A DNA stretch of 64,000 nucleotides from Bacilli bacterium (GCA_016296775.1 JAEDIE010000001.1:18131-82130), one strand, 5' to 3'. Positions 1 through 63,790 are shown, numbered from the stretch's first letter. The notes: generated from the letters alone by a model not told the origin. A program made the numbers and translations.

Positions 1-1190
1 CTAATAAATTTAAATTAATTAAAGATCAAGAACCTTGTTATTTAATTTATACAAATGAAGAAACTCATAAAATTATTAGAGATAATTTATATGAATCTGC
101 AATGTATGGAGGAATTGTTAAAGGTGTAGGACCAAGATATTGTCCTTCAATCGAAGACAAATTAGTACGTTTTGCTGATAAAACTCGTCATCAATTATTT
201 TTAGAACCAGAAAGTTACGATACAAACAGCATATATTTACAAGGGTTTTCTACTTCTATGCCTAAAGAAGTCCAAGAAAAGATGGTCCATTCTTTAAAGG
301 GATTAGAAAACGCTAAAATTTTAAAATATGCTTATGCAATTGAATATGATGCTTTTGAGACATATGACTATACTTTTTCTTTAATGACTAAAAAGTATAA
401 AGGATTATTTATTGCTGGACAAATTTGTGGAACTAGTGGATATGAAGAAGCTGGTGGATTAGGCTTAATTGCTGGTATTAATGCTAGTAGATATATCGAT
501 AATCTTGAACCATTAATTTTAGGAAGAGATGAAGCTTATATAGGAGTTATGATTGATGATTTAGTTACAAAAGGAACTAAAGAACCATATAGATTACTTT
601 CTAGTAGAGCAGAATATAGATTACTTTTAAGAAGTGATAATGCTGATTTTAGATTAACTGAAATTGGAAGAAATATTGGATTAATTGATGAAGATAGATA
701 TTTAAAGTTTAAAGATAAATATGAAAAAATTAATAAGATTTTAGATATATTAAGAACTACATATTTAGGTGAAACAAGTCCAATTAATGAAGCTTTACTT
801 TTAAAAGGATATGAAAGATTATCAAGTGGAGTTAAAGCCATTGATATATTAAAAAGAAATGGGATTTCATATAGTTTTTTAAAAAATTATGTTTCTATTC
901 CTAGTGATTTAAACCTAGATAAAAGTGGAGAAGATGAAGTAGAAATCATCGCTAAATATGAAGGATATATAGAAGGAGAAAGAAAAGAAGTTGCTAAATT
1001 TAAAAAGTTAGAAACTTTAAAACTTAAAAGTGATATTGATTACTCCTTAATTGATGGATTAGCTTTAGAAGCTAGACAAAAATTAAATAAAGTAAAACCT
1101 TTAAATATAGGACAAGCTTCAAGAATTAGTGGGGTAAATCCTAGTGATATTGCAATATTAATAATGAATTTAAAAAATAAAAAGATATGA
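1..1190 (+). CDS. mnmG: tRNA uridine 5-carboxymethylaminomethyl modification enzyme MnmG/GidA. C-terminal part only; the 5' end lies outside the window and the reading frame is open from nt 3.
   Basis: The translation contains the MnmG core motif GVGPRYCPSIEDK and a C-terminal tRNA-binding region. The frame has no stop back to the window edge. The TGA stop overlaps the next start as ATGA. Confidence 0.9.
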   Translation, partial: NKFKLIKDQEPCYLIYTNEETHKIIRDNLYESAMYGGIVKGVGPRYCPSIEDKLVRFADKTRHQLFLEPESYDTNSIYLQGFSTSMPKEVQEKMVHSLKGLENAKILKYAYAIEYDAFETYDYTFSLMTKKYKGLFIAGQICGTSGYEEAGGLGLIAGINASRYIDNLEPLILGRDEAYIGVMIDDLVTKGTKEPYRLLSSRAEYRLLLRSDNADFRLTEIGRNIGLIDEDRYLKFKDKYEKINKILDILRTTYLGETSPINEALLLKGYERLSSGVKAIDILKRNGISYSFLKNYVSIPSDLNLDKSGEDEVEIIAKYEGYIEGERKEVAKFKKLETLKLKSDIDYSLIDGLALEARQKLNKVKPLNIGQASRISGVNPSDIAILIMNLKNKKI

Positions 1191-1855
1191 TAACTTTAGA
1201 AGAAATTAAAAATAATGAAAAATTACAAACCTTTAAAAAAATGGTAATTGAAACAAATGAAGTATTAAATTTAACAGCAATTACCGATTCTTTTGAGTTT
1301 GATATTAAACATTTATATGATTCTTTATTAATTTTAGATTATTTTGATTACAAAAATAAAAATATTATGGATTTAGGAAGTGGAGCAGGTTTTCCTGGCA
1401 TTCCTCTTGCTATTTTATTAAATGATACTAACTTTTATTTAGTTGAACCTACTAAAAAAAGATGTGATTTTCTTCTTTCTGTAAAGGAAAAATTACATTT
1501 AGATAACGTAACAATTATTAATAAAAGAAGTGAAGATTTAGATAATAATTTTAGATCTTTCTTTGATTTTATAGTAACTAGAGCTGTTTCAAGATTAAAC
1601 ATTTTAGTTGAGATTTCATTACCTTTTTTAAAAAATAATGGATGTTTAATATCTTATAAAGGATTGAAATATGAAGAAGAAATATCAGAAGCTAAGAATG
1701 CTTTAAAGACATTATCTTCAAATGTTTTAGAAGTTAAGAAAGAAACTTTACCATTTTTAAATGAAGAAAGATTTAATATAATTATTAAAAAGGATAAAGA
1801 TATATCTAGTAAATATCCTCGTCTTTATTCAACTATAAAAAAGAGACCTTTATAA
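1187..1855 (+). CDS. rsmG: 16S rRNA (guanine527-N7)-methyltransferase RsmG/GidB
   Basis: SAM-methyltransferase motif DLGSGAGFPGIPLAI. Conserved position after mnmG. Confidence 0.9.
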   Translation: MITLEEIKNNEKLQTFKKMVIETNEVLNLTAITDSFEFDIKHLYDSLLILDYFDYKNKNIMDLGSGAGFPGIPLAILLNDTNFYLVEPTKKRCDFLLSVKEKLHLDNVTIINKRSEDLDNNFRSFFDFIVTRAVSRLNILVEISLPFLKNNGCLISYKGLKYEEEISEAKNALKTLSSNVLEVKKETLPFLNEERFNIIIKKDKDISSKYPRLYSTIKKRPL

Positions 1856-2623
1856 ATGAAAATTATTGCTATTGCTAACCAAAAAGGGGGAGTAGGTAAA
1901 ACTACTACATGTATCAATTTAGCGGCTAGTTTAAATGAACTAAACCGTAAAGTTTTGCTTGTCGATTTAGATCCTCAAGGAAATTTAAGTAGAGGATTAG
2001 GATTAGATGTTTCTTTAATTAGTAAAAATATTTTTGATGCATTAATTTTGGATGTAGATATAAATAAAGTAATTAAGAAAACAATGATGAAAGGATTAGA
2101 TATTATTCCTACAAATTTAAAGTTATCTAATCTTGAAAGTGAAATTTATCAAAAAAATGTTAGACCTTTTACTTTATTAAAAGAAGCTCTTTCTTCTTTA
2201 AAGAAAAATTATGATTATGTTTTAATTGATTGTCCTCCTTCACTTGGAATTCTTTGTATTAATGCTTTAACTGCTTCAGATTCTGTATTAATTCCTGTTC
2301 AATGTGAGTATTTTGCTCTTGAAGGATTAGCTCAAATTTTAGGAACAATTTCTAAAGTACAAGAAATGTATAATAAAAAACTTACTATTGAAGGATTTTT
2401 ATTAACAATGTATGAGTCTAGATCTAAACTTGGTAATGAAGTTGTTGAACAAGTTCGAACTTTATTTAGAGAAAATACATTTAATGTAATTGTTCCACGT
2501 AATATTTCTTTGAGTGAATCTAGTGCTAAAGGAATTCCTGCTATTTTATATAAACCAACAAGTCAAGGCAGTATTGCTTATAAAAAACTTGCTAAAGAAG
2601 TAATAGATAATGAAAGAAAATAA
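1856..2623 (+). CDS. parA: ParA/Soj chromosome-partitioning ATPase
   Basis: Deviant Walker A KGGVGKTTT. Typical ParA length of 255 aa. Followed by parB. Confidence 0.9.
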   Translation: MKIIAIANQKGGVGKTTTCINLAASLNELNRKVLLVDLDPQGNLSRGLGLDVSLISKNIFDALILDVDINKVIKKTMMKGLDIIPTNLKLSNLESEIYQKNVRPFTLLKEALSSLKKNYDYVLIDCPPSLGILCINALTASDSVLIPVQCEYFALEGLAQILGTISKVQEMYNKKLTIEGFLLTMYESRSKLGNEVVEQVRTLFRENTFNVIVPRNISLSESSAKGIPAILYKPTSQGSIAYKKLAKEVIDNERK

Positions 2624-3407
2624 AATATTAAAAGAAAATAATTTAGAAGATTTAATTAAGAAATTTTCTAAATCTGATATTGTTTCTTCAATAAGAGAAA
2701 ACTATAGTAAAGAAAATATAAAATATATATCTAATTATTTAATAAATGATAATAAATACTTGGAAAAAGCTATTGTTTTTGATGAAGCAATTAAAAATAT
2801 TAAAAATAGTATCGAAGAAAACGGTGTATATAAGCCTTTTTATGTAAATTATAAAGATAATAAATATGAAATTATTATTGGAAGAAAAAGATTAAGAGCT
2901 AGCAAGGAATTAAAAGAAGAAAACGTTCCTTGTATAGTTTTTAGTGTAGATGAACACGAAGAATTATTAATGCTTTTAGCAGATATTCAAGATCATAAAG
3001 AAGTAAATATGTATGAATTATCTTTAATTTTAAATGAGTTATATACTAAATATAATTACAAATTAAAACAACTTTCTTCTTTAATAAATCAATCAGTTTA
3101 TCAAGTAAGTAATATTTTAAATTTAGTAAAATTACCATATGAAATTCTACTTGATTTAGGAAATAACTTAACAAGTTATGGAATATGTAAAACTTTAATT
3201 TATGCTAAAAAAGAAAAGGTAATGGAATATTATAAGTTTGCAAAAAAAGAGAATTTAAGTGTCAGATCTTTAGAAAAACTTGTTAAACAAGATAAAAAGG
3301 TAAGTAAAAATTTTAAGGTTGATGTGGATGAAAATAACTTATCATTAAATATTAAATTTGAAAATAGTGAGGATTTACATAGGTTTTTAAAGAAACTTAA
3401 TAAATAG
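2610..3407 (+). CDS. parB: ParB/Spo0J-like partition protein
   Basis: ParB N-terminal nuclease-like motif IIIGRKRLRA. Overlaps the parA stop. Confidence 0.8.
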   Translation: MKENKILKENNLEDLIKKFSKSDIVSSIRENYSKENIKYISNYLINDNKYLEKAIVFDEAIKNIKNSIEENGVYKPFYVNYKDNKYEIIIGRKRLRASKELKEENVPCIVFSVDEHEELLMLLADIQDHKEVNMYELSLILNELYTKYNYKLKQLSSLINQSVYQVSNILNLVKLPYEILLDLGNNLTSYGICKTLIYAKKEKVMEYYKFAKKENLSVRSLEKLVKQDKKVSKNFKVDVDENNLSLNIKFENSEDLHRFLKKLNK

Positions 3408-3441
3408 ATTTACTAAAATTTATATTTTGATATACTAAAAT

Positions 3442-3575
3442 TACTTCAGGGATAGGTGTAATTCCTTACTGGTGGTATAGCCCACGAGACGAAAGTCAGA
3501 ACTTGTTGAAATCAGTGCCAATAGTTAAAGTCTAGATGAAAGAAGATTTTTTATTTGCTCTTTGAAGTAGAAAGA
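3442..3575 (+). promoter_or_regulatory. FMN riboswitch (RFN element) with an expression platform that sequesters the RBS
   Basis: Conserved RFN blocks are visible: cagggataggtgtaattcc...ctggtggtatagcccacgagacgaaagtcaga...gtgccaatagttaaagtctagatgaaagaag. The downstream hairpin ctcttt/aaagag covers the SD-like sequence. The downstream gene is a riboflavin ECF S-component. Confidence 0.85.
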
Positions 3576-3581
3576 GAACTT

Positions 3582-4217
3582 ATGAAAAGAAAAAGAATTA
3601 TTAATTTAATCGTTCACGTTGCAATTTTTGGAGCATTGGCCATTATTTTATATTGTGTTCCGTATCTTCAATTTTCACTTCCATTTTGTCCATCTTTTTT
3701 AAAAATTCATTTCGATGAAATACCTATTCTATTAGCGGGTTATGCATTTGGACCATTAGAAGCCATATTAATTATCATATTAAAAGCTTTATTTAAGCTT
3801 ATTCAAGATATACCTGAAACAGGTGGAATTGGAGTATTAGCTGATGTCATTTATTCTTCAGCTTTTATACTTCCAGCTGTTTTTATCTATAAAAAACATA
3901 AAAATTTAAAAGGAGCAGTTATTTCTCTTTTAGTAGGAGTTTTATCTCAGTTAATTGTAAGTTGTGTAATAGGATTATATTTAATTTACCCATTATATGG
4001 TCTATATTTTTATCCTCAAGCTAGTAGTTATCAAGAAGCAATGGAAGTTGTAGGACAATTATTTACTCCGTTTGATAATTCTATTAAAAGTGCTACAGAT
4101 CCAAAAATTATGTATCAATTTTTGCTTCCTTTCAATTTAATTAAAGATGTAATTGTAGCTTCAGTGTGTTTTGTTTGTTATAAACCTTTAAAAATGTTAA
4201 TTGAAAGAAAAATGTAA
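3582..4217 (+). CDS. ribU: Riboflavin transporter RibU (ECF transporter S component). Start reassigned to the ATG after the riboswitch.
   Basis: Small protein of about 210 aa with about 6 TM segments, lying downstream of an FMN riboswitch. The ORF-track start at 3555 lies inside the riboswitch. Confidence 0.75.
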   Translation: MKRKRIINLIVHVAIFGALAIILYCVPYLQFSLPFCPSFLKIHFDEIPILLAGYAFGPLEAILIIILKALFKLIQDIPETGGIGVLADVIYSSAFILPAVFIYKKHKNLKGAVISLLVGVLSQLIVSCVIGLYLIYPLYGLYFYPQASSYQEAMEVVGQLFTPFDNSIKSATDPKIMYQFLLPFNLIKDVIVASVCFVCYKPLKMLIERKM

Positions 4218-4276
4218 GAATTTAAGCAAAATAAAAGACTATTCGAAGGAATAGTCAGTTATCAATTAAAATGAAA

Positions 4277-4450
4277 TTATTTTGAAATAGCACCAACTGG
4301 GCAATTTGCAATGGCTTCATCAGCACTAGCTTCATCTAAATCACCGATGACTCTAGCTTTACCTTCATCATCAAATTCAAATGCACTATCGTATGTTCCT
4401 ACGCAAACACCGCAACCAATGCAGCTTTCAGCATCAACTGTAACTCTCAT
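4277..4450 (-). CDS. fer: 4Fe-4S ferredoxin (57 aa). Not present in the ORF track.
   Basis: The reverse-strand translation is MRVTVDAESCIGCGVCVGTYDSAFEFDDEGKARVIGDLDEASADEAIANCPVGAISK. It has a CxxCxxC...CP ferredoxin motif and is preceded by the RBS ggaggaattaat. Confidence 0.8.
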   Translation of the reverse strand: MRVTVDAESCIGCGVCVGTYDSAFEFDDEGKARVIGDLDEASADEAIANCPVGAISK

Positions 4451-4610
4451 ATTAATTCCTCCAATTAATTAAAATATACCATTTTAGAAATAAAAATCAA
4501 CATTAAAATGAATGGTTAAACTTTAATAATAATTCTAGAAAATAATTGCTATTTTGATATTAAAATATTCGCTTTTAGATTATAATATAAGTAATAGATG
4601 GAGGATTCAC

Positions 4611-5162
4611 ATGAAATATCAAATAATTGGTAAGAATATTCAAGTAACTGAAGGCATCTCTTCTGCAATTAAAAGAAAAGTGTCAAAAATGGACAAATAT
4701 TTTGAAAATCCAGACCAAGTTGAATGTAGAGCAGTTGTTAGAAGTTATAAAAACGAAGCTAAAGTCGAAATTACTTTAAGAAATAACGATATTATTTTTA
4801 GAGCTGAAGTTAAAGATCCTGATTTGTATGCAGCTATTGATTTTGCTATTGACAAATTAGAAGGTCAAATGAGAAAATTAAAGACCAAATTAGAGAGAAG
4901 ACATAATAAAAATGGTATCGGAAGATCTATTATTTATTCAGAAATTGAAGAACCATTTAATGTAAGTGAAGATGAAATTGTTAAAACCAAATCATATAAT
5001 TTAAAACCTATTACAATGGAAGAAGCCATTATTGAAATGGAAGCTATAGGTCATGATTTTTATGTTTATTTAGATACTGATGATGAAAAGATTTCAGTTC
5101 TTTATAAGAGAAAAGAAGGGGGATACGGTTTAATTCAAGCTGAAAATAAAGTAGTTTTATAG
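4611..5162 (+). CDS. hpf: Ribosome hibernation promoting factor (long form, YvyD-type)
   Basis: N-terminal sigma-54-modulation/S30EA domain MKYQIIGKNIQVTEG plus a C-terminal dimerisation domain. RBS ggagga lies 6 nt upstream of the ATG at 4611. Confidence 0.85.
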   Translation: MKYQIIGKNIQVTEGISSAIKRKVSKMDKYFENPDQVECRAVVRSYKNEAKVEITLRNNDIIFRAEVKDPDLYAAIDFAIDKLEGQMRKLKTKLERRHNKNGIGRSIIYSEIEEPFNVSEDEIVKTKSYNLKPITMEEAIIEMEAIGHDFYVYLDTDDEKISVLYKRKEGGYGLIQAENKVVL

Positions 5163-5179
5163 AATTAAACTAGTAGTTG

Positions 5180-6010
5180 ATGAAGATTATTGCAACCGAC
5201 TTGGACGGTACTTTGTTTTACCCAAAAGATAAAGTAGAAATGATTTCTGCTAATAATCTTTTTTTCCTACAAAATTTTATTGATGATGGAAATAAGGTAG
5301 TTATTATTTCTGGAAGAAGCATCGATTATGGAAAAAAGGTTATTAAAAAAATTGGGAGAGATTGTTCAGTTATTGGATTTAATGGGACATGTGTTTTTAG
5401 TGAAGGAAAATATATCGAAAAAAAGACCATGCCTAATGATTTAGTAAAAGAATTTATTGATGATACATTCCAAACTTTTAAAAATTTTGGTGTCTTTTTA
5501 ATGACTGATAAAGGTGTATCAGTTCATTTAAAAACTAAATCAAAATTTATTAGATGGTTCGCCAATTTATATTACAAATCTCAAAAGATTTATGCAGAAC
5601 AATTTTCAAGCTTAGAAAGCGATTATGAAAGCGAATTAGCTAATGGAAATATATACAAGGTAATGCTATTTTTTGGAATTAGTAAAAGAAAAATGAAAGC
5701 AGCTAGTGAAGCTAATAAAATATTACGTAATTCCTTTGATAATTTTGAATGTTCATGGTCTGGACCAGTAATTGAAGTCACATTAAAAGGATGCTCTAAA
5801 GCTAATGCTTTAAAGGACTTTATTAAGTTAAAAGGCTATTCAAAAGAAGATGTTTATGTTGTTGGAGATAGTGGAAACGATATCTCAATGTTTAAAGATT
5901 TTTATGAAAATAGTTTTTGTATGGAGCATTCCCCAAGCAGTATTAAAAAATATGCTAGATATACTATTCATAAATTTGAAGATTTATCTAGATATATTTA
6001 TAAAAAATAG
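5180..6010 (+). CDS. Cof-type HAD-IIB phosphatase
   Basis: DxD motif IIATDLDGTLF. C-terminal VGDSGNDISM motif. Confidence 0.8.
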   Translation: MKIIATDLDGTLFYPKDKVEMISANNLFFLQNFIDDGNKVVIISGRSIDYGKKVIKKIGRDCSVIGFNGTCVFSEGKYIEKKTMPNDLVKEFIDDTFQTFKNFGVFLMTDKGVSVHLKTKSKFIRWFANLYYKSQKIYAEQFSSLESDYESELANGNIYKVMLFFGISKRKMKAASEANKILRNSFDNFECSWSGPVIEVTLKGCSKANALKDFIKLKGYSKEDVYVVGDSGNDISMFKDFYENSFCMEHSPSSIKKYARYTIHKFEDLSRYIYKK

Positions 6011-16493: not shown

Positions 16494-16568
16494 GCTGACT
16501 TAGCTCAATGGTAGAGCAATCGGCTGTTAACCGATCGGTTGTAGGTTCGAGTCCTATAGTCAGCGCCA
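16494..16568 (+). tRNA. tRNA-Asn (GTT)
   Basis: Acceptor stem gctgact/agtcagc. Anticodon loop ctGTTaa. T-loop ggttcgagtcc. CCA is encoded. Confidence 0.85.
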
Positions 16569-16579
16569 TCACTCAAATT

Positions 16580-16656
16580 GGCCTATTGGAGAAGTGGCTT
16601 AACTCACATGCCTTTCACGCATGCATTCATGGGTTCGAATCCCGTATAGGTCACCA
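16580..16656 (+). tRNA. tRNA-Glu (TTC)
   Basis: Closely resembles Bacillus tRNA-Glu: ggcctat...anticodon stem catgc/gcatg with loop cTTTCac...gggttcgaatccc...CCA. Confidence 0.8.
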
Positions 16657-16668
16657 TTTTGAAAGCAT

Positions 16669-16700
16669 AGGTTTGATACAGTAGTGTCAAACCTTTTTTG
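16669..16700 (+). terminator. Rho-independent terminator after the tRNA pair
   Basis: aggtttga..tcaaacct hairpin followed by TTTTTT. A second hairpin agaccaga..tctggtct at about 16741-16787 is also followed by a T-run. Confidence 0.6.
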
Positions 16701-16799
16701 TTTGGCAGAAAGGGTGATTTTCCTATCCGCCAGTTTTTTAAAGACCAGAAGTAGTGAATTATGTAACTATTATCTGGTCTTTTCTTTATTTTTGTATTT

Positions 16800-16849
16800 A
16801 ACTTTTTAACGATTATCTAACTTTTTAACGTTTTGACAACTTTTTAACG
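16800..16849 (+). repeat. Three direct copies of AACTTTTTAACG with an exact 19-bp period (16800, 16819, 16838), immediately upstream of an extended -10 promoter
   Basis: Read directly from the sequence. The spacers are 7 bp. TGgTATATG lies at 16867-16875. Confidence 0.7.
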
Positions 16850-16965
16850 ATTTATTTATTGATTGTTGGTATATGAATAATATGGTCAAAAGTATAGATT
16901 TTTTACATATTATGTGTTATAACAATTTCATAAAAACACAAAACATATTAGGAGGTGCAATATTA

Positions 16966-17892
16966 ATGAAAAAAATTATTAATTTATTTTCTATTTTTTT
17001 ATTAATTATTATTTCTTTTATGCTTTCTGGTTGCGATATTTTAAATGGTTTATTAGGTGACAATGGTTCAAGTAATAGAGAAGAAAACTTTAATAACGAA
17101 TTAGAATCATCTACAGGCAAATGGCTATTAGAAAATGATGAAGACACTTATTTTGTATTTGATGGAACTAAAGGAGTTATGACATACAGCTATGTTGAAA
17201 ATGGAGTTGACAAATATAATGGTACTTATAGAGTTGTTTCTAGAGAAATAGGAAAAGATGTTGCAACACCACTAACTTTTGTTTTCACAAGAAATGATAA
17301 AGCAAAAGAAGATTGGATTGGATGTTATGTCGAAGATTTTAATAGTGATTTTACTCAGTTTACAATTATGAGTGAAGAAGAAGATCTTGGAATGATTGAT
17401 GGTTCTATTCATACTTATATTTATCGAATTAGTGAATTACCTTATAAAATGGGAAGTTATATTTTAGAAGGTAATGATTACAAAGTAGAATCTGATAATT
17501 ATAAATACTCTAATAAATTCTGCATTCCAAGTGGTACTTATACGTTAGAAACTGGAGAAAGATTTACTTTCTTATATACTAAACCTGTAACGAATGAATT
17601 GTTCCAATATGTAAATGGTGAAATAATTATTGAAGGAACAATTACGATAGCGGAAGATAAAAAGACAATTTATCTTTACATTGAGAATGATCCTTATAAT
17701 AAAGTAACTGATGCTGATAAAGAGCGTTACGATACGACATTTGGTATTTATTATCCACCTGATTTCTATCTACGAGGTGATTTTAGCAATCCAAATAAAA
17801 TTGTAATTAATGATTTATATCATCACACAGAAAGTCCAAGTGAAATTGAAGATTCAACTTGGTTGTTTGGAACATATAATAAAATTAATTAA
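16966..17892 (+). CDS. Lipoprotein, hypothetical (308 aa)
   Basis: Lipobox FMLSGC after a hydrophobic h-region. RBS aggagg lies 9 nt upstream of the ATG at 16966. The ORF-track N-terminal extension lacks an RBS. Confidence 0.65.
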   Translation: MKKIINLFSIFLLIIISFMLSGCDILNGLLGDNGSSNREENFNNELESSTGKWLLENDEDTYFVFDGTKGVMTYSYVENGVDKYNGTYRVVSREIGKDVATPLTFVFTRNDKAKEDWIGCYVEDFNSDFTQFTIMSEEEDLGMIDGSIHTYIYRISELPYKMGSYILEGNDYKVESDNYKYSNKFCIPSGTYTLETGERFTFLYTKPVTNELFQYVNGEIIIEGTITIAEDKKTIYLYIENDPYNKVTDADKERYDTTFGIYYPPDFYLRGDFSNPNKIVINDLYHHTESPSEIEDSTWLFGTYNKIN

Positions 17893-17908
17893 TTGGCAAT
17901 AGGAATAA

Positions 17909-17997
17909 GGGTACAAAAACTACCTAAAAGGGTACGGACTTTTAATACAAGGGTACGGAAAAAATAAACCTTATAACGATTACTCATTAAAGGGTAC
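17909..17997 (+). repeat. Iteron-like array: 4 copies of (A)AGGGTAC(G/A)GA phased at 21, 21 and 41 bp, flanked by the 8-bp inverted repeats ACTACCTA / TAGGTAGT
   Basis: The copies sit at 17909, 17930, 17951 and 17992. The inverted-repeat arms lie at about 17918-17925 and 18013-18020. Confidence 0.6.
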
Positions 17998-18042
17998 GGA
18001 ATTGTATTAAAATAGGTAGTGTTTGCCAAAAAGGAGATTCTA

Positions 18043-18074
18043 GGATAATACGTTGTATTATCCTTTTATTTTAT
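18043..18074 (+). terminator. Hairpin plus T-run (9-bp perfect stem ggataatac/gtattatcc)
   Basis: Read from the sequence. Followed by ttttatttta. Confidence 0.5.
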
Positions 18075-18178
18075 GGATTCTCCGTTTTTTTCCGGGGTAT
18101 TTCCGGGTATTTGAAAAAATACCTCTTTTTTATTAGGAAAATTGAAAATACCCTGTGAAAAATAATCGTTTTTTGTAG

Positions 18179-19122
18179 TGAACACATTTCTTTGGACCAA
18201 AATAATGAAGGGAAGATTTTATATGAAGTTCACAAAAGAGTTCAGGTTAAAATGGTAAAAAATACTTGAACGGAGAAATGATTCTAAAGTTTGGAGATGG
18301 ATCAAAACACAATTGCTCTAAAACTGTAAGGGCATGGGTTAAGCTTTATGGAATATCATGGAGAAGAAGGCTTGAGCCATCGCTATAACAATAGGACAAT
18401 CAAAGAAAAAGAATATGCTGTTAAGAGATTTCTTGTTGGAGAAAGCAAAACTGATGTTGCCGCTTCTTTAGGAATAAGTAAATCCATTTTATCTGAATGA
18501 ATTAACATTATTTTAAAAAAGGAATTTCTGGTATAGAATTAAATCACTTATTGGGAAGGCCACCAAAAATGTCTAAAAACACACTAGGAAGAAAAACTCG
18601 CGCTGAATTAGAAAAAGAATATAAATTTTTAAAGACAGAGGGCGAATATTTAAAAAAATTAGATGCCTTAGTTCAAAAATGAAACGTGCTACAATCGAAG
18701 AAAAAGTAAAGATTGTTAATGTATTAAGGCACAAGTATAAATTAAGCACCTTATTGGAAATTTCAAAACTATCTAAATCAACATATTTTTTCACTCTTAA
18801 CAAAGTAAACTTAGATGATAAAAACAAAGAAATTATTAATGAGATTATTGATATTTATTACTTTAATAAATCAAGATATGGTTATAGAAGAATAACTCAA
18901 GAACTTAAAAATAGATGTTTTATAGTTAACTATAAAAAGTTAAACGTATTATATCACCATTAGGTATTTTTGGTATTAAAACAAGCAATTATTGATTATA
19001 TCAATTACTACAACAACGATAGAATTTCTTGCAAATTAAAAGGACTGAGTCTGAATAACTTTAGACATCAGTCCATTCAACCCCTTATAATTTAATTGAA
19101 CTTGTCCAATAAAGTGGGTTCA
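18179..19122 (+). mobile_element. Degraded IS3-family (IS150-like) insertion sequence with recognisable terminal inverted repeats and an internal deletion
   Basis: The left inverted repeat (IRL) is TGAACACATTTCTTTGGACCAAAAT. The reverse complement of the right end (IRR) is TGAACCCACTTTATTGGACAAGTTCA, which matches about 20 of 26 positions. The internal frames encode OrfA-like (HTH, LGRPPKMSKNT...EYLKK) and OrfB N- and C-terminal fragments broken by stops. The integrase core is missing. Confidence 0.6.
18297..18963 (+). pseudogene. IS3-family transposase orfAB remnant (multiple stops and frameshifts)
   Basis: Conceptual translation gives IS3 OrfA-like segments and the OrfB start RYGYRRITQELKNRCFIV, interrupted by in-frame TGA/TAA stops. 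The C-terminal ...NNDRISCKLKGLS fragment lies near 19000-19060. Confidence 0.55.
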
Positions 19123-55506: not shown

Positions 55507-55818
55507 ATGGCAAAAGTTAAAAAGATTAGAATTCGTTTACAATCTTATGACCACAAATTACTCGATATGGCTGTTGGTAAAATTGTAAATGCAATTACTA
55601 AGACAGGTGCAGGTGTAGTCGGACCTATTCCTCTTCCAACGGAGAAACAAGTCTACACAATCTTAAGAGCTGTTCATAAATACAAAGATTCTCGTGAACA
55701 ATTCGAAATTAGAACCCATAAGAGAATCCTTGATATCACAAATCCAAATAGTGAATCAGTTGATGCATTAAGAAAATTAGATTTACCAAGTGGTGTTGAT
55801 ATCGACATTAAGTTATAG
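55507..55818 (+). CDS. rpsJ: 30S ribosomal protein S10
   Basis: Clear homology in the translation. First gene of the S10 operon. Confidence 0.95.
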
Positions 55819-55831
55819 GAGGTAAGACACA

Positions 55832-56515
55832 ATGAAACAAATCATCGGTCGTAAAATTGGAATGACTCAAGTTTATGCAGAAGATGGAACAATGTATGCT
55901 GTCACAGTTGTTGAAGTCTTACCAAACGTAGTCACCCAAAAGAAAACACTTGAAAAAGATGGTTATGAAGCTATCCAAATCGGATACGAAGACAAAAAAG
56001 AAAAGAATCTTAACAAGTGTGAAAAAGGTATATTCGCTAAAGCCAACGTTAGTGGTAAAGCTAACTTATTCGAATTAAAAGGCGACGAAATGACAAAATT
56101 CGAAGTTGGACAAGAAATTACATGTGATTTATTTGCTAAAGGTGAACAAATCGATGTTATCGGAACAAGCAAAGGTAGAGGATATGCCGGTACCGTCAAG
56201 AGATGGGGCCACACCATCGGACCTAAAGGACATGGTTCAGGATACCACAGAGGTCAAGGTTCATTTGCTAACAATGGTAGATGCAACAACCGTGTTATTC
56301 CAGGAAAGAAAATGTCAGGTCATATGGGGAATCAATCAGCTACAGTTTTAAATCAAGTAGTTGTTGATTCAAACAAAGAAATGAACTACATCCTTGTAAG
56401 TGGTGGAGTTCCAGGACCTAAAAAAGGTTTAGTAAAAATTAGAAGTGCTATTAAGCCAGTTGCAAATCCATTAAAGGTTGAAACATTGATTAATAGAACT
56501 CCTAAAGCTGAATAG
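55832..56515 (+). CDS. rplC: 50S ribosomal protein L3
   Basis: Translation and operon order. Confidence 0.95.
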   Translation: MKQIIGRKIGMTQVYAEDGTMYAVTVVEVLPNVVTQKKTLEKDGYEAIQIGYEDKKEKNLNKCEKGIFAKANVSGKANLFELKGDEMTKFEVGQEITCDLFAKGEQIDVIGTSKGRGYAGTVKRWGHTIGPKGHGSGYHRGQGSFANNGRCNNRVIPGKKMSGHMGNQSATVLNQVVVDSNKEMNYILVSGGVPGPKKGLVKIRSAIKPVANPLKVETLINRTPKAE

Positions 56516-56530
56516 TAGAAAGGAGCGAAT

Positions 56531-57151
56531 ATGGAAAATATCGAATTAAAAGTCTTATCCCAAACTGGTAAGGAAGTTTCTACTATTACATTAGATAAGG
56601 AAGTCTTTGGTGTTGAAGTTAACGAACAAGTTATGTTCGATGCTGTTATGACTTACTTAGCAAACAGAAGACAAGCTACTGCTAAAACAAAGAAAAGACA
56701 TGAAGTTAGCGGTGGTGGTAAGAAACCATTCAGACAAAAAGGAACTGGTAGAGCAAGAGCAGGAAGCTCAAGATCACCAATCTGGGTCGGTGGTGGAACT
56801 GTCTTTGGACCAGATGGAAACCAAAACTACAAAATTAAACAAAATAAGAAAGAACATAAGTTAGCCTTAAAGAGTGCCTTAACAAAACAAATTGGAAATC
56901 TTATCGTTCTTGATAGTTTAACAGTAGGTGGTAAAACAAAAGAAATCGTTGAAGTTTTAAAAGCTTTAAACGTTGCTAACAATAAAGTTTTATTAGTTAG
57001 TGAAGATGAAAAAGTACTTCAAGGTAGCGCAAACCTTGCTAATGTACTTGTCGTTAATAGAAGTAACATCTCAGTTTATGACTTATTAAACAGTGAATCA
57101 CTTGTTATGGTCGAAGCTGATGTTAAATCATTAGAGGAGGGTCTTAAATAA
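56531..57151 (+). CDS. rplD: 50S ribosomal protein L4
   Basis: Translation and operon order. Confidence 0.95.
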   Translation: MENIELKVLSQTGKEVSTITLDKEVFGVEVNEQVMFDAVMTYLANRRQATAKTKKRHEVSGGGKKPFRQKGTGRARAGSSRSPIWVGGGTVFGPDGNQNYKIKQNKKEHKLALKSALTKQIGNLIVLDSLTVGGKTKEIVEVLKALNVANNKVLLVSEDEKVLQGSANLANVLVVNRSNISVYDLLNSESLVMVEADVKSLEEGLK

Positions 57152-57489
57152 TGGCTAAAAAAGAAGTGGTAGCTGAAGTAGTCGCTACAACAAAACCTAT
57201 CATTCATGATTTTGAAATTATTAAAGAACCAGTAATCACTGAAAAGAGCTCACTTCTTAGTGAACAAGCTAATCAATATACATTCATTGTTGATAAGAAA
57301 GCTGGAAAGACCGAAATTAGAAAAGCTATTGAAAGAATCTATGGTGTTCACGTTGTTGGAATTAGCACCATCAATGCCAAAGAAAAACTTTTATCAAGAG
57401 GTTCTAGATATAAAGGAAAGATTGGCGCATTCAAGAAAGCTATTGTTACATTACGTGAAGGCGAAGTAATCAACTTATTCGCTGAATAA
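57151..57489 (+). CDS. rplW: 50S ribosomal protein L23 (short N-terminal extension)
   Basis: Translation and operon order. Confidence 0.9.
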   Translation: MAKKEVVAEVVATTKPIIHDFEIIKEPVITEKSSLLSEQANQYTFIVDKKAGKTEIRKAIERIYGVHVVGISTINAKEKLLSRGSRYKGKIGAFKKAIVTLREGEVINLFAE

Positions 57490-57517
57490 AATTAAAACTT
57501 ATATATAGGAGAAAGAT

Positions 57518-58351
57518 ATGTCAGTAAAAAGTTATAAACCTTATACTCCTTCTAGAAGAGCAATGATCTCGATGAACTATGAAGAAGTAACCAAAAAGAC
57601 TCCTGAAAAAAGTTTAGTTGTCACACTTAAAAAGAGTGGTGGAAGAAATAACCAAGGTGTTATCACTTGCCGTCACATCGGAGGAGGCAATAAAACAAAA
57701 TACAGAATTATCGATTTCAAAAGAAATAAAGACGGAGTTGTCGGAAAAGTATTCGCTATCGAATATGATCCAAATAGAAATGCAAATATTGCCTTAATCC
57801 ATTATCTTGATGGTGAAAAACGTTATATCATCAAACCTCAAGGATTACATGTCGGTGACACAATTGTCAGTGGAGATGCTTGTGATATCGTCGTAGGTAA
57901 TGCAATGTTACTTAAAAACATTCCTGAAGGTACATTTATACATAACGTCGAATTAACACCAAAGAAAGGTGGACAATTATGTAGAAGTGCTGGATGTAGT
58001 GCTCAAGTCCTTGGTAAAGAAGGCAAATATGTTATCGTCAGACTTCAATCTGGTGAAACAAGAAAAATTCTTGAAACATGTAGAGCTACAATCGGTATCG
58101 TAGGAAATGAAGATTACAACCTTGTCAATGTTGGTAAAGCAGGTAAAACAAGATATAAAGGTGTAAGACCAACAGTTAGAGGTTCCGCTATGAACCCACC
58201 AGATCACCCACACGGCGGTGGTGAAGGTAAGTGTCCAGTTGGTAGAGATGCACCACGTACTCCATGGGGTAAACGTGCATTAGGTGTCAAGACACGTAGA
58301 ATTAAGAAGGCTTCAACTAAATTAATTATTAGAAGAGCCTCAGATAAATAA
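57518..58351 (+). CDS. rplB: 50S ribosomal protein L2
   Basis: Translation and operon order. Confidence 0.95.
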
Positions 58352-58371
58352 TCGGGAAAGGAGATAGAAAT

Positions 58372-58674
58372 ATGTCAAGAAGCTTAAAAAAGGGACCATT
58401 TGTTGATGAAAGCTTAATGAAGAAAGTTGAAGCTTTAAATGCTAGCAACAAGAAAGCTGTTATCAAAACATGGTCAAGAAGAAGTACAATCTTTCCTGAA
58501 TTTGTAGAACATACATTCGCTGTATACAATGGTCACACATTCATTACAGTTTATGTAACAGAAGATATGGTTGGTCATAAATTAGGTGAATTTGCTCCAA
58601 CAAGAACTTTCAAAGGTCACTTTGGAAACAATGCTGAAGACAAAGCAGCCGCTATGGCAGCCTTAAAGAGATAG
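58372..58674 (+). CDS. rpsS: 30S ribosomal protein S19
   Basis: Translation and operon order. Confidence 0.95.
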
Positions 58675-58687
58675 GAGGAATTAGTTA

Positions 58688-59215
58688 ATGGCTACAGAAA
58701 CTAAAAAGAAAACTGCTAAAGTTGAAGAAGCTAGTGCTCCAACAACTGAAGTAGTCAAAAAACCTAGAAAACCAAGAGCTAAGAAAGTTACTCCTGAAAC
58801 AACTGAAGTTAAAGAAGTAAAAGAAGTTAAGAAAGCTAAAAAAGAACCTGTAAAAGAAGAAGTCAAAAAACCAATCGTTACAGAAGCTAGAGCTAAAGCC
58901 TTAACATTAAAGGTTACTCCTAGAAAATGTAGATTAGTTGTTGATCTTGTTAGAGGAAAATCTTGCAGTGAAGCACTTGAAATTTTATTCAATACTCACA
59001 AAGAAGCAGCTCCTATGGTTGCTAAAGTTATTAAATCAGCTGTCGCAAATGCTGTTAATAACTTCAATATGAGAGAAGATAAATTATACGTTGCTTCAAT
59101 CATGGCAAGTGATTCAGTCAAAATGAAAAGATACCTTCCACGTGCTAAAGGTAGCGCCAGTGGAATGGTTAAGAGATTCACAAATCTTTACGTCGTTGTA
59201 AAAGAAAAGAACTAA
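58688..59215 (+). CDS. rplV: 50S ribosomal protein L22 with a roughly 65-aa lysine-rich N-terminal extension
   Basis: The L22 core starts at about ARAKALTLKVTPRKCRLV. It is preceded by the low-complexity K/E/T/V-rich MATETKKKTAKVEE...KKPIVTE. Confidence 0.9.
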   Translation: MATETKKKTAKVEEASAPTTEVVKKPRKPRAKKVTPETTEVKEVKEVKKAKKEPVKEEVKKPIVTEARAKALTLKVTPRKCRLVVDLVRGKSCSEALEILFNTHKEAAPMVAKVIKSAVANAVNNFNMREDKLYVASIMASDSVKMKRYLPRAKGSASGMVKRFTNLYVVVKEKN

Positions 59216-59233
59216 TGGAGGGAAGATAAAGTT

Positions 59234-59923
59234 ATGGGTCAAAAAGTAAATCCAGTAGGAATGAGAATTGGTCTTAATAAAGATTGGAACTCTAGATGGT
59301 TCGCAAGTGATAAAGACTATGCAACTCTTCTTAACAATGATATTCAAATTCGTAAATTCTTAGATAAGAAGTTACCAAAAGATGCTCTCGTTTCACATAT
59401 TGAAATCGAAAGAAAAGAAAGAGATGGACGTCCATATACTCGTGTTATTCTCTTTGTTGGTCGTCCAGGTGTTGTTCTTGGACAAGATGGAGCAAACATC
59501 AAATTATTAAAGAAACAATTACAAAAAGTAGTTGGTAAAAATGTTGAATTAAAATTAGATGTAGCTGAAGTTAAACAACCTCAATTAGATGCTACAATCG
59601 AAGCTACAAAAATTTGTCAACAATTAGAAGCACGTGCTTCCTTTAGAATCGTTCAAAAGAAAGCTCTTGCTGAAATTAGAAAAGCCGGTGCTAAGGGATG
59701 CAAAACAAAAGTAAGCGGAAGACTTGCTGGTGCTGATATCGCTCGTAGCGAAGGTTATAAAGAAGGAACAATGGCTATCAATACTCTTAAGAGTGATATT
59801 GATTATGCCCATGCAGAAGCTATGACCACTTATGGTAAATTAGGCGTTAAAGTCTGGATTTGCCGTGGTGAAAAAGTTGCTGATGAAAAGCCATCAACTC
59901 CTGAATCAAAGAAAGGAGAATAA
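59234..59923 (+). CDS. rpsC: 30S ribosomal protein S3
   Basis: Translation (KH domain). Confidence 0.95.
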   Translation: MGQKVNPVGMRIGLNKDWNSRWFASDKDYATLLNNDIQIRKFLDKKLPKDALVSHIEIERKERDGRPYTRVILFVGRPGVVLGQDGANIKLLKKQLQKVVGKNVELKLDVAEVKQPQLDATIEATKICQQLEARASFRIVQKKALAEIRKAGAKGCKTKVSGRLAGADIARSEGYKEGTMAINTLKSDIDYAHAEAMTTYGKLGVKVWICRGEKVADEKPSTPESKKGE

Positions 59924-59926
59924 ACT

Positions 59927-60349
59927 ATGTTACAACCAAAAAGAGTTAAATATAGAAGACCTCATATTATTAGATATGAAGGACTTAGTAAAGGTGGAAA
60001 TGAAGTAAGTTTTGGTGAATATGGTCTTCAAGCTACAAGTGGAAACTGGGTTAGCGATAGACAAATCGAAGCTTGCCGTATTGTATTAAGTAGATATACC
60101 AAAAAAGGTGGAAAAGTCTGGATCAGAATTTTCCCACAAATGGCTAAAACCAAAAAACCTGCCGAAGTCCGTATGGGTAGTGGTAAAGGTAGTCCAGAAT
60201 ATTGGGTAGCTGTTGTTAAAAAGAATAGAGTTATGTTTGAAGTTGGCGGAATTTCAGAAGCTGATGCTTATGAAGCCTTAAGACAAGCTAGCTACAAACT
60301 TAACGTTTCAACAAGAATCGTTAAAAGAGTATCTAAGGAGGGTAAATAA
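59927..60349 (+). CDS. rplP: 50S ribosomal protein L16
   Basis: Translation. Confidence 0.95.
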
Positions 60350-60351
60350 TT

Positions 60352-60549
60352 ATGAAAATTGATGAAATCAGAGAAAAATCAGTCGAAGAACTCAATGAAG
60401 CTATTTACTCACTTAAAGAAAAATTATTCGATTTAAGAAGAAAGAAAGCCGTTGGTCAACTCGAAAACTTAAGTGAAATTAAGAGAGTTAGAAAAGAAAT
60501 CGCAAGATGTTACACAGTTCTTAAAGAAAAAGAACTTGGTGTTAAATAA
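60352..60549 (+). CDS. rpmC: 50S ribosomal protein L29
   Basis: Translation. 65 aa. Confidence 0.9.
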   Translation: MKIDEIREKSVEELNEAIYSLKEKLFDLRRKKAVGQLENLSEIKRVRKEIARCYTVLKEKELGVK

Positions 60550-60559
60550 GGAGTAAGTT

Positions 60560-60883
60560 ATGGATCACAAAAAGAGAATTCAAGGTGAAGTTATCTCAGC
60601 TACAAATGATAAAACCATTAAAATTCAAACAATCCCTTACAAAAAACACCCTCTTTACAAAAAGAGAGTTGAAAAAAGACATACTTACTATGCTCATGAT
60701 GAATTAAATGAAGCTAATGTTGGAGATACAGTCACAATCGTTGAATGTAGACCAATGTCTAAAACAAAGAGATTTAGACTTGAATCAATCGATAAGAAAG
60801 CTTTAGTCAAAATTAAAGTTTTAGAAGAAGAAGCAGTTAAAGAAGCTCTTCATGAAGAAGAAACAACAGAGGAGGCTAAATAA
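60560..60883 (+). CDS. rpsQ: 30S ribosomal protein S17 with an acidic C-terminal tail
   Basis: S17 core plus the C-terminal [19 protein letters not shown]. Confidence 0.9.
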
Positions 60884-60885
60884 TT

Positions 60886-61260
60886 ATGATACAAACAGAA
60901 ACAAATTTAGTAGTCGCTGATAACTCTGGTGCTCGTTCAGTAAGAGTATTTAGAATTTATGGCGGGAGCCATAGAAAATCTTGTTCAGTTGGTGATATCG
61001 TTCTTTGCGCAGTCAAAGATGCTATCCCAAACGGAAAGATTAAGAAAAGTCAAATTGTCAAAGCAGTAATCGTTAGAACTAGCTATCCAATCCAAAGAAA
61101 AGATGGTTCTTCAATCAGATTCGATGATAACGCTTGCGTTATTATCAATGAAGATAAGACACCAATCGGAACCCGTGTCTTTGGTCCAGTCGCTAGAGAA
61201 TTACGTGAAAAGGGTGATACATTCATGAAGATTATCTCCCTTGCTAATGAAGTCTTATAA
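60886..61260 (+). CDS. rplN: 50S ribosomal protein L14
   Basis: Translation. Confidence 0.95.
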
Positions 61261-61272
61261 GGAGAAATGATT

Positions 61273-61584
61273 ATGAAACTTAAAAAAGGTGATAAGGTAA
61301 TTGTCATTTCTGGAAAAGAAAAAGGCAAAACTGGTGTTATTCAAAAAGTAATGCCAAAAGAAAATAAAGTTATTATTGAAGGTTTAAACGTTCGTAAGAA
61401 GAACCAAAAACCTACTCAAGCTAATCCAAAAGGTGGCCAAATTGATATTTATGCCCCAATTGATGCTTCAAATGTTGCTTTCTATGATGAAAAGAGCAAA
61501 AAAGCTGTCAAAATCGGATACAAACTTGATAAAGATGGTAACAAAGTAAGATTTAATAAATCTACTAAAAAAGAAATTAAATAA
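61273..61584 (+). CDS. rplX: 50S ribosomal protein L24
   Basis: KOW motif. Start set at the second ATG, 8 nt after the aggag RBS. Confidence 0.9.
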
Positions 61585-61595
61585 AAGGAGAGGGT

Positions 61596-62213
61596 ATGGC
61601 AGAAACAAAGAAAACTACAGCTACAGTTGAAGCTGCAACTTCTGAAAAAGGTGCTCATAAAACAGCTACCTACACAAACAGATTACTCGACAAATACAAT
61701 TCTACAGTTAAGGAAGCATTAATGAAGAAGTTTGAATACACTTCCATTATGCAAGTTCCTCATCTTGACAAGATCGTCGTCAACGTTGGTGTTGGTGATG
61801 CTCTTGAAGACAAGAAGAGAATTGATGAAGTTGTTGATGAAATTGGTGCAATCACTGGTCAAAAACCAATCGTTACAAAAGCTAAGAAATCAATCGCTTC
61901 ATTCAAGTTAAGAGAAGGTGAACCAATTGGTGTCAAAGTTACTCTTAGAGGAATTAGAATGTATGAATTCCTTGATAAACTCGTAAGTATCTCACTCCCA
62001 AGAGTTAGAGACTTCAGAGGTGTAAGTAAAAATAGTTTTGATGGAAGAGGAAATTATACACTTGGTATTAAAGAACAATTAATTTTCCCAGAAATTAACT
62101 ACGATAAAGTTAACAAAGTTAGAGGAATGGACATCGTCATTGTTACAACAGCTAACACTGATGAAGAAGCTTATGCTCTTTTAAAAGAGTTAGGCATGCC
62201 ATTTAGTAAATAA
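61596..62213 (+). CDS. rplE: 50S ribosomal protein L5 (about 25-aa N-terminal extension)
   Basis: Translation. Confidence 0.95.
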
Positions 62214-62225
62214 TAGGAGGATGTT

Positions 62226-62411: not shown

Positions 62412-62426
62412 TAGGAGGACAAGAAT

Positions 62427-62825: not shown

Positions 62826-62839
62826 TAGGAGGGTAAATT

Positions 62840-63406: not shown

Positions 63407-63421
63407 TAGGAGGAAATTAGT

Positions 63422-63778: not shown

Positions 63779-63790
63779 TAGGAGAAAGTT

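Follow-up and report, generated by a model that had tools for sequence, protein, structure and literature searches.

Phages that encode a large serine recombinase (LSR), such as A118, TP901-1, Bxb1 and phiC31, keep the integrase gene next to the attachment site, an imperfect dyad of about 55 bp that is built around a crossover of 2 bp. This dinucleotide is all that attL and attR have in common, and two or more LSR genes are also known from related Firmicutes phages. For the characterised large serine integrases, att sites of about 50 bp suffice without accessory DNA sites, and we know of no characterised LSR site that is flanked by phased-repeat arrays. Elements moved by serine recombinases usually disrupt genes, the 3' ends of tRNA genes being typical targets of tyrosine recombinases (PMC5704250). 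The family described here resembles the LSR phages in its dyad, in its shared dinucleotide and, in some members, in adjacent LSR genes, but differs from them in having two repeat-bearing arms and in its targets, the 3' ends of many tRNA genes.

The attP sites of lambda, L5, P2 and Tn916 resemble our locus in another way: the crossover is flanked by arms of about 100-250 bp with phased direct repeats and integration takes place at tRNA 3' ends, a layout that suggests an intasome-like complex. These sites are served by a tyrosine integrase and have an identical overlap of 6-8 bp, whereas here a serine enzyme recurs, 2-3 nt are shared and the two arms carry different motifs; the combination of a 6-8-bp overlap with a heterobivalent tyrosine integrase, which defines lambda-type arm sites, was not found. 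The CIMEs, defined in a review of IMEs (PMC5704250), provide a further likeness. Those of Streptococcus ICEs and IMEs are flanked by att sites, have no recombinase or transfer genes and form tandem arrays at a tRNA gene, from which a related resident element could potentially mobilise them (PMC5704250). The described CIMEs derive from tyrosine-integrase ICEs and IMEs; the cassettes analysed here are about 1-2 kb long, have their own promoter and one to three cargo genes, and form unidirectional, integron-like arrays. A report on the ssrA-specific genomic islands of Dehalococcoides (PMC3146451) contains the terms "serine recombinase" and "tandem"; these islands differ from our case in being large and in having a single target gene.

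Integron cassettes are likewise small, recombinase-less, diverse in cargo and arranged in one orientation from a fixed anchor, with a recombination site at the 3' end. Unlike them, our cassettes have their own promoters, a tRNA gene and not attI as anchor, and neither IntI nor an attC structure (R''/L''-L'/R', GTTRRRY): the attC consensus (RYYYAAC...GTTRRRY) was not found at cassette boundaries, and no IntI-type gene was recurrent. Plasmid iterons and SaPI origins share with our array three to five direct repeats, a two-turn period and motif changes that affect all copies together, but here an adjacent initiator gene and DnaA boxes are absent and the repeats lie at a fixed distance from a recombination terminus.

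The array studied here lies within positions 17893-18178 of the window, the whole 64,000-nucleotide stretch that was analysed. We estimate at roughly 0.6 the probability that it is the P arm of an attP-type site of a serine integrase, surviving as the attR of a decayed, possibly trans-mobilisable, phage-derived cassette, in which the repeats are putative accessory protein-binding sites.

The 1372-bp unit behind tRNA-Glu

The array is the right-hand part of a unit of 1372 bp (16657-18028) that starts directly after the CCA of a tRNA-Glu gene. A terminator hairpin is followed by three 19-bp TTTAACGATT repeats, a promoter and a lipoprotein gene, the GGGTACGGA array and the terminal segment ATTGTATTAAAATAGGTAGTGTTTGCCA. 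ARAGORN placed a tRNA-Asn and the tRNA-Glu gene upstream, at 16494-16656. The features, all on the plus strand, are:

16580-16656, plus: tRNA-Glu(UUC) gene (ARAGORN), its 3' CCA being the left junction (B side of attL)
16657-16699, plus: start of the left arm, read from the sequence as TTTTGAAAGCATAG, the hairpin GGTTTGATAC-AGTA-GTGTCAAACC and a T-run
16800-16856, plus: left-arm repeats, three 19-bp units AACTTTTTAACG(A/T)TT, read from the sequence
16895-16923, plus: putative cargo promoter, TAGATT, 17 nt and TATAAC preceded by TG, as suggested by its sequence
16966-17892, plus: cargo gene for a lipoprotein of 308 aa, signal peptide ending in LSGC, no Pfam family
17907-18000, plus: array of five slots at a 21-nt phase (sequence, repeat search, alignment to locus L168, family statistics)
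17907, 17928, 17949 and 17990, plus: array slots 1, 2, 3 and 5, AAGGGTAC(A/G)(A/G)A
17974-17983, plus: array slot 4, TAACGATTAC, its CG in phase with the CG of GGGTACGGA
18001-18028, plus: terminal segment ATTGTATTAAAATAGGTAGTGTTTGCCA, the limit of similarity to L168, L059 and both copies in L004; a proposed P half-site of a serine-recombinase attP, with the crossover dinucleotide CA at its end
18029-18178, plus: flank outside the unit, with a terminator at 18042-18074, then TTTTTTTCCGGGGTATTTCCGGGTATTTGAAAAAATACC-TCTTTTTT with a second hairpin and T-run; probably the native region downstream of tRNA-Glu (B') or the left-arm start of an older element
18179-19122, plus: decayed IS3-family element outside the feature, recognised by its inverted repeats, with broken transposase reading frames

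The four GGGTAC copies of the original prediction were found at 17909, 17930, 17951 and 17992, at spacings of 21, 21 and 41. The rest of the 64 kb window contains one further copy, at 19134. About 3.7 copies are expected per 64 kb on both strands and four within 90 bp of one strand have a chance of about 1e-7 (Poisson estimate), so that the cluster is far beyond chance. Exact copies of the 11-mer AAGGGTACGGA start at 17928, 17949 and 17990; the copy at 17907 reads AAGGGTACAAA, with 2 mismatches. The 41-bp gap holds TAACGATTAC, and the homologous array of L168 has a fifth repeat copy in that slot. The inverted repeats said to bracket the array are real, although they extend over 13 nt and not 8 bp (17914-17926 and 18013-18025, 92% complementary), and a second pair is also present (17940-17950 and 18002-18012, 11/11). 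The hairpin that had been described with a 9-bp stem lies at 18042-18064, has a stem of 10 bp and is followed by the T-run TTTATTTTAT. The further direct and inverted motifs placed at 18090-18160 are likewise there, as GGGTAT at 18095 and 18105 on the plus strand and at 18148 on the minus strand. A hairpin followed by TTTTTAGGGGTAWTT is typical of the left arms of L021 and of the phage PV036447.1.

The original suggestion of a relic mobile-element end was supported. A partner end lies at 16657-16860, and the block of similarity stops at 18028. The partner does not repeat the 11-mer; it carries a different repeat, TTTAACGATT, in three copies and in direct orientation, with TTTAACG starting at 16805, 16824 and 16843. 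The left-arm terminator hairpin reads GGTTTGATAC...GTCAAACC, and TTTGATACAGT, within 16657-16699, is the inverted partner of ATTGTATTAAA at the opposite end of the unit. As in CIMEs, both arms enclose the lipoprotein gene only, without recombinase or transfer genes.

The array had also been placed directly at the left end of the IS3 element. The two are 150 bp apart: the similarity block reaches 18028, and the IS begins at 18179 with its left inverted repeat. This remnant has inverted repeats of its own (TGAACACATTTCTTTGGAC at 18179 and rc(GTCCAATAAAGTGGGTTCA) ending at 19122) and is absent from all of the homologous arrays. The IS3 remnant is unrelated to the array.

Homologues of the lipoprotein (184) were found in MAGs of 26-60% GC and in unrelated genomic contexts; the chromosome of the window has 28% GC. 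Their similarity to the window begins about 90 bp before the start codon and stops at 18028 (...ATTGTATTAAAATAGGTAGTGTTTGCCA). The gene lies 140-500 bp behind tRNA genes of several identities (Glu, Thr, Arg, Leu-GAG, Leu-CAG and Ser), with an orientation that does not vary, and the promoter arrangement of the window recurs in L005 and L007. The pckA product of the window is 93-94% identical to proteins labelled Candidatus Onthovivens or Bacilli bacterium. No clean empty tRNA-Glu site was recovered in these close relatives (pckA 93-94% identical, Ca. Onthovivens-like), which carry there a different insert of 5.6 kb with a UvrD-like helicase and adh_short, indicating that the tRNA-Glu site is a variable hotspot. 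This outcome favours the original suggestion: between tRNA-Glu and pckA the DNA of the close relatives is quite different, and the region is not conserved in them as ordinary intergenic sequence. The array is not ordinary intergenic DNA and is unlikely to be an origin.

A family of two-arm cassettes behind tRNA genes

Scanning metagenome contigs with the pattern GGGTRYGNAATTGTATTAAA returned at least 120 stretches. The pattern required a terminal repeat copy plus ATTGTATTAAA, so that the apparent universality of the terminal part is partly a selection effect. Nearly all of the matches listed have one to five copies of (A/G)GGGT(G/A)(C/T)GNA, the last of which is fused to ATTGTATTAAA and 17 nt ending in CA; in the same matches the terminus is usually followed by TATWRAAGCATAGGTTTGATAC and a hairpin. 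Among the matches listed, 119 non-redundant arrays contained one (51), two (27), three (14), four (25) or five copies (2). In these 119 arrays the spacing of the repeats ranged from 19 to 22 nt and was most often 20 (63 cases) or 21 (56 cases), and about 15 positions of each unit were conserved, the other 6 or so not. The consensus of about 15 bp, A-R-GGGT-R-Y-G-N-A-AA-W-W, thus recurs every 20-21 bp, or two helical turns. The last repeat was always at a fixed 37 nt from the terminus in the family arrays among the matches listed, and a terminal CA was present in 94 of 108 of them. The same architecture was found in over 100 metagenomic loci and in one complete gut phage genome. The family is large, and its arm architecture appears undescribed in the literature searched.

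The arrays are associated with tRNA genes. A co-oriented tRNA gene lies upstream of the array in 21 of the 22 tRNA-containing loci, with at least ten amino acids represented, and the same cassette is found behind tRNA-Gly (L134) and tRNA-Leu (L034), starting exactly after the CCA. In many loci TATWRAAGCATAGGTTTGATACAAT follows both the CCA ends of tRNAs and the array ends, with an offset of 15-16 nt at 60 of 108 array ends. By eye, the sequence beyond the array end of L050, L061 and L100 resembled a convergent tRNA gene at its 3' end; none of the three loci yielded a tRNA call from ARAGORN. Reading the repeats themselves, or the terminal ...GCCA, as relics of tRNA T-arms or 3' ends was kept as a minor alternative only, as the invariant GGGTnnGnA does not match the invariant bases of the T-loop and the spacing differs.

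In these relatives the cargo inside the two-arm frame is unrelated, and the cassettes often stand in tandem behind a wide range of tRNA genes; the frame forms a modular unit with definite boundaries. Locus L004 contains tRNA-Lys, cassette A with three small ORFs and cassette B with a lipoprotein gene. The cargo of the two is unrelated; their left arms are homologous to each other, and so are their right arms. Both left parts consist of TAAGAC, a hairpin, a T-arm-like stretch and AACGATTA repeats, and both right parts of a GGGTAC array ending in GTGTTTGCCA. The end of the L004 units is found again, after other genes, in L005 and L014. Tandem cassettes also occur in L028, L052, L075, L086, L098 and L115, each with its own promoter and with diverse cargo that includes lipoproteins, RelB/Fic pairs, XRE regulators and AAA ATPases. 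Repeats of the left-arm type, ACGATT or ACACGATT, were found in L004, L028, L052, L062, L086, L098 and phage PV036447.1. At least three phased repeats, mostly ACGATT or ACACGATT, followed 21 of 94 array ends, compared with 10 of 156 control segments.

Junctions and the candidate recombinase

The sequence common to attL and attR is usually only CA or CCA (window, L030, L034, L039, L092 and L134), with longer repeats in some loci (L042, L062 and L067); in most pairs, as at LSR sites, only a 2-bp crossover is shared. Tyrosine recombinases need an identical overlap of 6-8 bp. Junctions sharing 2-3 nt therefore do not fit a tyrosine recombinase, but do fit the 2-bp crossover of a serine recombinase, and a tyrosine-integrase model was rejected because this holds in most pairs. 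Tyrosine recombinase genes were found near arrays in three loci only (L001, L038 and L096), at inconsistent positions. The junctions form an imperfect dyad of about 55 bp, made of ATTGTATTAAA, 17 nt ending in CA, 15 nt and TTTGATACAAT; the inverted partner TTTGATACAAT is at a fixed offset in 60 of 108 junctions among the matches listed. For the window, an imperfect dyad of about 50 bp, as expected of an LSR site, can be reconstructed from 18001-18028 plus 16657-16682.

Clustering of the neighbouring ORFs revealed one recurrent recombinase family, the LSRs, often encoded as a pair of about 430 aa and 530 aa with the Pfam domains Resolvase, Recombinase and Zn_ribbon_recom. The clustered genes were always on the strand of the array and always upstream of it. 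LSR genes lie close to arrays: of the 48 loci with at least 4 kb of upstream sequence, 8 have a pair on the same strand 0-3 genes before the array, the array of L121 begins 30 nt past the stop codon of the second LSR gene, and in the IMG/VR contigs with close LSR homologues (L154-L157, L159 and L168) the array follows 90-250 nt after the gene. At least three phased repeats were found after 9 of 61 LSR genes and after 1 of 237 control segments. The LSR pair is preceded by a small HTH protein, always encoded with it, and a SHOCT-like protein. The window has no recombinase gene, nor do most cassette loci. L042 represents an intermediate stage of decay: behind tRNA-His and a left arm it retains the C-terminal part of an LSR, with a frameshift, and then cargo genes and the array. 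From this association, with adjacency in a minority of loci, we infer that the LSR is the catalyst. An array that is separated from the LSR by cargo might be part of a distinct, accreted cassette.

Both arms are present in a complete phage, GenBank PV036447.1 ("Anaeroplasmataceae phage NatCom_34063, complete genome"; Ca. Heliusvirales; 63,197 bp). At its right end, an LSR pair (60216-63081) is followed by GGGTGTCG at 63110, 63141 and 63162 and by the terminus TTGTATTAAAATAGTTGTGTAAATACA, i.e. TTGTATTAAAATAG...ACA. The left end consists of CACCA, TTAGAGTACATTAGTCTTGATAC, a hairpin and AACGATTAC at 177, 197 and 226. A 28-nt composite site, GGGGTGTCGGAAGTAATCGTTCTAACAC, is found in both arms in inverted orientation. 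Among other Heliusvirales with LSR homologues, PV036423, PV036416, PV036458 and PV036426 had no arm, convergent genes following directly after the LSR, and PV036431 had different repeats. The paper that defines the order Ca. Heliusvirales reports 97.9% of complete genomes as temperate and makes no mention of integrase type, tRNA or attachment sites. A pattern scan of viral contigs gave one match, inside a coding region and judged to be due to chance.

What the repeats may do

The arrays of the window and of L168 are homologous, with the same spacers (AAAACTACC.A and TTTTAATACAA) and the same terminal 28 nt. The repeat copies themselves differ throughout, being GGGTACGGA in the window and GGGTGCGAA in L168, a concerted motif change that points to recognition by a protein. 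Such a change with constant spacers, together with the two-turn period, the fixed 37 nt to the terminus and a second set of repeats, is expected of cooperative protein-binding sites at a recombination site, and we infer that the repeats bind a protein and act in recombination. To this extent the proposal of a multi-site recombinase-binding end stands, with phased repeats that look like protein sites next to a recombination junction; the Tn7, Mu or Tn554 type proposed for it found no support. The 51 of 119 arrays with a single copy (among the matches listed) suggest that extra copies are dispensable, or that those elements have decayed.

If the array ended a DDE transposon of the Tn7, Mu or Tn552 kind, with stacked transposase sites and a 3'-CA terminus, this would account for subterminal repeats at a period of about 21 bp, for a terminus in ...CA-3' and for orientation-specific insertion downstream of tRNA genes, which some Tn7-like elements also show. 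However, an inverted copy of the end was present in 0 of 130 loci, the arrays occurring as direct tandem repeats, and a Tn7- or Mu-type end is excluded because any inverted partner end is lacking. Left ends start with TATAAG, TTTTGA or similar and not with TG, the junctions have no target-site duplication, and recurrent DDE, TnsB, TniQ or Tn554 genes were not found near the arrays, where the only DDE genes are those of ordinary IS3; a DDE end is thus extremely unlikely. The original prediction had also considered origin iterons or a captured replication site. In its most favourable form, the repeats would be iterons that function only in the excised circle and bind the initiator of a helper phage, as in SaPI or satellite origins, the two repeat sets flanking an AT-rich junction region. 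Direct repeats in 3-5 copies on one helical face, at a period of 20-21 bp that falls within the 17-22 bp or so of tandem iterons, a second repeat set across an AT-rich hairpin region and copies that change in concert, as initiator-iteron pairs do, all agree with this. Against it, no rep, helicase or primase gene lies by the array in the window, the cassettes, the LSR end of L154-L168 or PV036447.1, and no DnaA-box cluster was found; blastn gave no similarity to plasmid or phage origins, a search with 17880-18185 against plasmids and phages returning only short chance matches or none. The fixed 37 nt from the last repeat ties the array to the junction and not to a replication gene, and we regard an origin of this kind as unlikely.

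The same fixed distance argues for a junction-linked role against a purely regulatory one, in which the repeats would have no part in recombination and would serve a phage regulator as operators or insulators; transcription that crosses the junction would be under its control, for instance where cargo is silenced or where recombinase or cargo transcripts run on. The small HTH protein that always accompanies the LSR pair would be a suitable regulator, the left-arm repeats lie 60-130 nt upstream of the cargo promoter, and arrays are placed after the end of a gene and ahead of terminators. An operator is usually a palindrome that overlaps a promoter, whereas these are direct repeats downstream of genes, and the array keeps its orientation to the tRNA and the junction even in the 7 cases (e.g. 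L144) whose preceding genes lie on the opposite strand; this role is improbable. An RNA element in the 3'-UTR of the cargo or recombinase transcript (a protein sponge or stabiliser), read as far as the terminator at 18042, would fit the 95 arrays that follow a plus-strand ORF, the lack of any terminator found between the lipoprotein stop codon and the array, and a fold of the window array that beats shuffled sequences (z = -2.8). Yet 7 arrays follow a minus-strand ORF, the Rfam covariance models gave at best mir-137 (23 bits) and PyrR (21 bits), far under their gathering scores, and the inverted repeats of the fold are limited to the sub-family of the window, L004, L059 and L168, the dominant GGGTGCGTA family having none. 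The two-turn period is moreover a property of DNA, and we consider an RNA role very unlikely. The repeats could finally be functionless and simply carried along, having arisen by tandem duplication or as scars of successive integrations that left behind fragments like a tRNA T-arm. Copy number varies from 1 to 5, with 43% of arrays among the matches listed having a single copy, GGGTACGAA resembles the tRNA T-arm GGGTTCGAA, and partial tRNA 3' ends pile up at the site in L021. This is difficult to reconcile with a period confined to 19-22 nt, a 15-bp motif far more conserved than the 6-nt remainder, a motif that switches in all copies between constant spacers (L168), and arrays of 3-5 copies in intact LSR-bearing elements and a complete phage, and we think it quite unlikely.

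If the array is the P arm of a serine-integrase site, the family would consist of integrative elements derived from temperate phages in low-GC Firmicutes and Mollicutes-like gut and digester bacteria. The elements would insert exactly after the CCA of a tRNA gene, co-oriented with it, and crossover would take place at the dinucleotide CA within the imperfect dyad; the best candidate catalyst would be the LSR pair encoded just upstream of the array in full-length members. The repeats would present putative same-face binding sites to an element-encoded protein, for which the LSRs themselves and the small HTH protein encoded ahead of them are the candidates. Acting with the ACGATT-type repeats of the other arm as well, this protein would build the recombination complex or set its orientation. 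Arms would be out of the ordinary among LSRs, whose characterised members need att sites of about 50 bp only. The copy in the window, 16657-18028, would have lost all but the two arms and one promoter-bearing lipoprotein gene, and its reduction to arms and one cargo gene suggests a CIME-like remnant or a cassette that may be mobilised in trans.

A wider reading, which we put forward tentatively and as a possibility only, is that the small two-arm units constitute an integron-like gene-cassette system of low-GC Firmicutes and Mollicutes-like bacteria, moved in trans by phage-encoded LSRs with the phased arms as accessory sites. Cassettes with a promoter of their own, carrying lipoproteins, toxin-antitoxin pairs or defence-like ATPases, would be cut out, re-inserted in trans and stacked unidirectionally behind essentially any tRNA gene; the LSR responsible would have lambda-like arms and recognise tRNA ends generically. 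Large serine integrases are valued for genome engineering for their short att sites and because no accessory DNA is needed; if a widespread clade uses phased arms and many tRNA 3' ends, the known scope of the LSR class would be extended. Precise boundaries would also be available for prophages of the Ca. Heliusvirales type. The cassettes mark a pool of mobile lipoprotein, toxin-antitoxin and defence-like genes, and a clade that works in this way would explain the origin of tRNA-linked accessory-gene arrays in abundant uncultured bacteria of the gut and of digesters.

Chromosomal setting and insertion at tRNA 3' ends

The lipoprotein cassette (16657-18028) lies directly behind the CCA of a tRNA-Glu gene. 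Because mnmG, rsmG, parA and parB-like genes were found at the start of the window (1-3400) and a large ribosomal-protein operon at its end (55800-64000), this site belongs to the core, origin-proximal part of the chromosome rather than to a plasmid-like region. In the window organism's close relatives (L148, reverse strand 334-6000; L149-L153), the interval from tRNA-Glu to pckA lacks the lipoprotein cassette; in its place lie genes for a 961-aa UvrD-like helicase that bears a zinc ribbon and for a short-chain dehydrogenase, along with small ORFs. This makes the 3' end of tRNA-Glu an insertion hotspot that varies between strains.

An att duplication was identified in the related locus L021:

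L021 4430-4700: tRNA-Ser(UGA) and a second copy of its 3' end

The duplicate is an exact 20-nt copy (GAATCCCTCACTCTCCGCCA) located ~170 nt downstream of the tRNA, and the L021 lipoprotein cassette begins immediately behind the CCA of this duplicated end. This is a classical att duplication produced by a different small insert, which is stacked with the lipoprotein cassette.

Flank of the array and the IS3-family element

The phased GGGTAC-type array (17907-18000) and the region following it contain these features:

17889-18029 and 18066-18200, - strand: small ORFs of 46 aa and 44 aa from the ORF list
18029-18178: flank 3' of the array, with a terminator (18042-18074) followed by TTTTTTTCCGGGGTATTT
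18179-19122: decayed IS3-family element, with inverted repeats TGAACACATTTCTTTGGAC and TGAACCCACTTTATTGGAC (opposite strand)

The two small ORFs across the array and flank have TTG starts and gain no support from the relatives; they are most likely spurious. In the flank, TTTTTTTCCGGGGTATTT is similar both to TTTTTAGGGGTATTT, found after the L021 hairpin, and to TTTTTAGGGGTAAATT of PV036447.1, a complete phage with both arms. A second hairpin, GGGTATTT-GAAA-AAATACC, is also present with a T-run. The flank looks like the start of a further left arm, the arm type at the tRNA-proximal end of the cassette, and may be all that is left of an older element truncated by the IS3 insertion. The reading frames of the IS3-family element are broken, and no matching direct repeat was found at its flanks. 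Since intact or partial IS3-family transposase genes were detected near arrays in six loci besides the window (e.g. L055, L056 and L130), terminator-rich array junctions may be preferred IS3 targets.

Repeat arms in other lineages

The distant lipoprotein group (L017-L022 and L025; 51-53% identity) has a conserved 170-nt 3' flank of its own, ending in ...GTAGCCCTTTCAC ~170 nt past the lipoprotein stop codon, beyond which the flanks diverge. Upstream of the lipoprotein gene, these loci carry TCGTTAAA four times; this motif is TTTAACGA as read on the opposite strand. Their arms form a second family, whose terminus differs.

In two MAGs (L001, 4927-6990, and L008), the lipoprotein gene is accompanied by a single-copy array and is divergent to an adjoining tyrosine recombinase gene and type III restriction-modification operon.

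Other phage contigs encoding a large serine recombinase (LSR), the candidate type of catalyst, also have phased repeats, but their motif or orientation differs. In L229, the stretch 456-560 nt past the LSR stop codon holds TGCATACCCC, which is GGGGTATGCA in reverse complement, three times and then ATTGTATCAAA; L239, an Oscillospiraceae phage (PV036431.1, 56150-56394), contains TTTTGCGGTCTTG repeats and one inverted copy. These differing phased repeats suggest that repeat arms are general in this LSR clade, with lineage-specific motifs.
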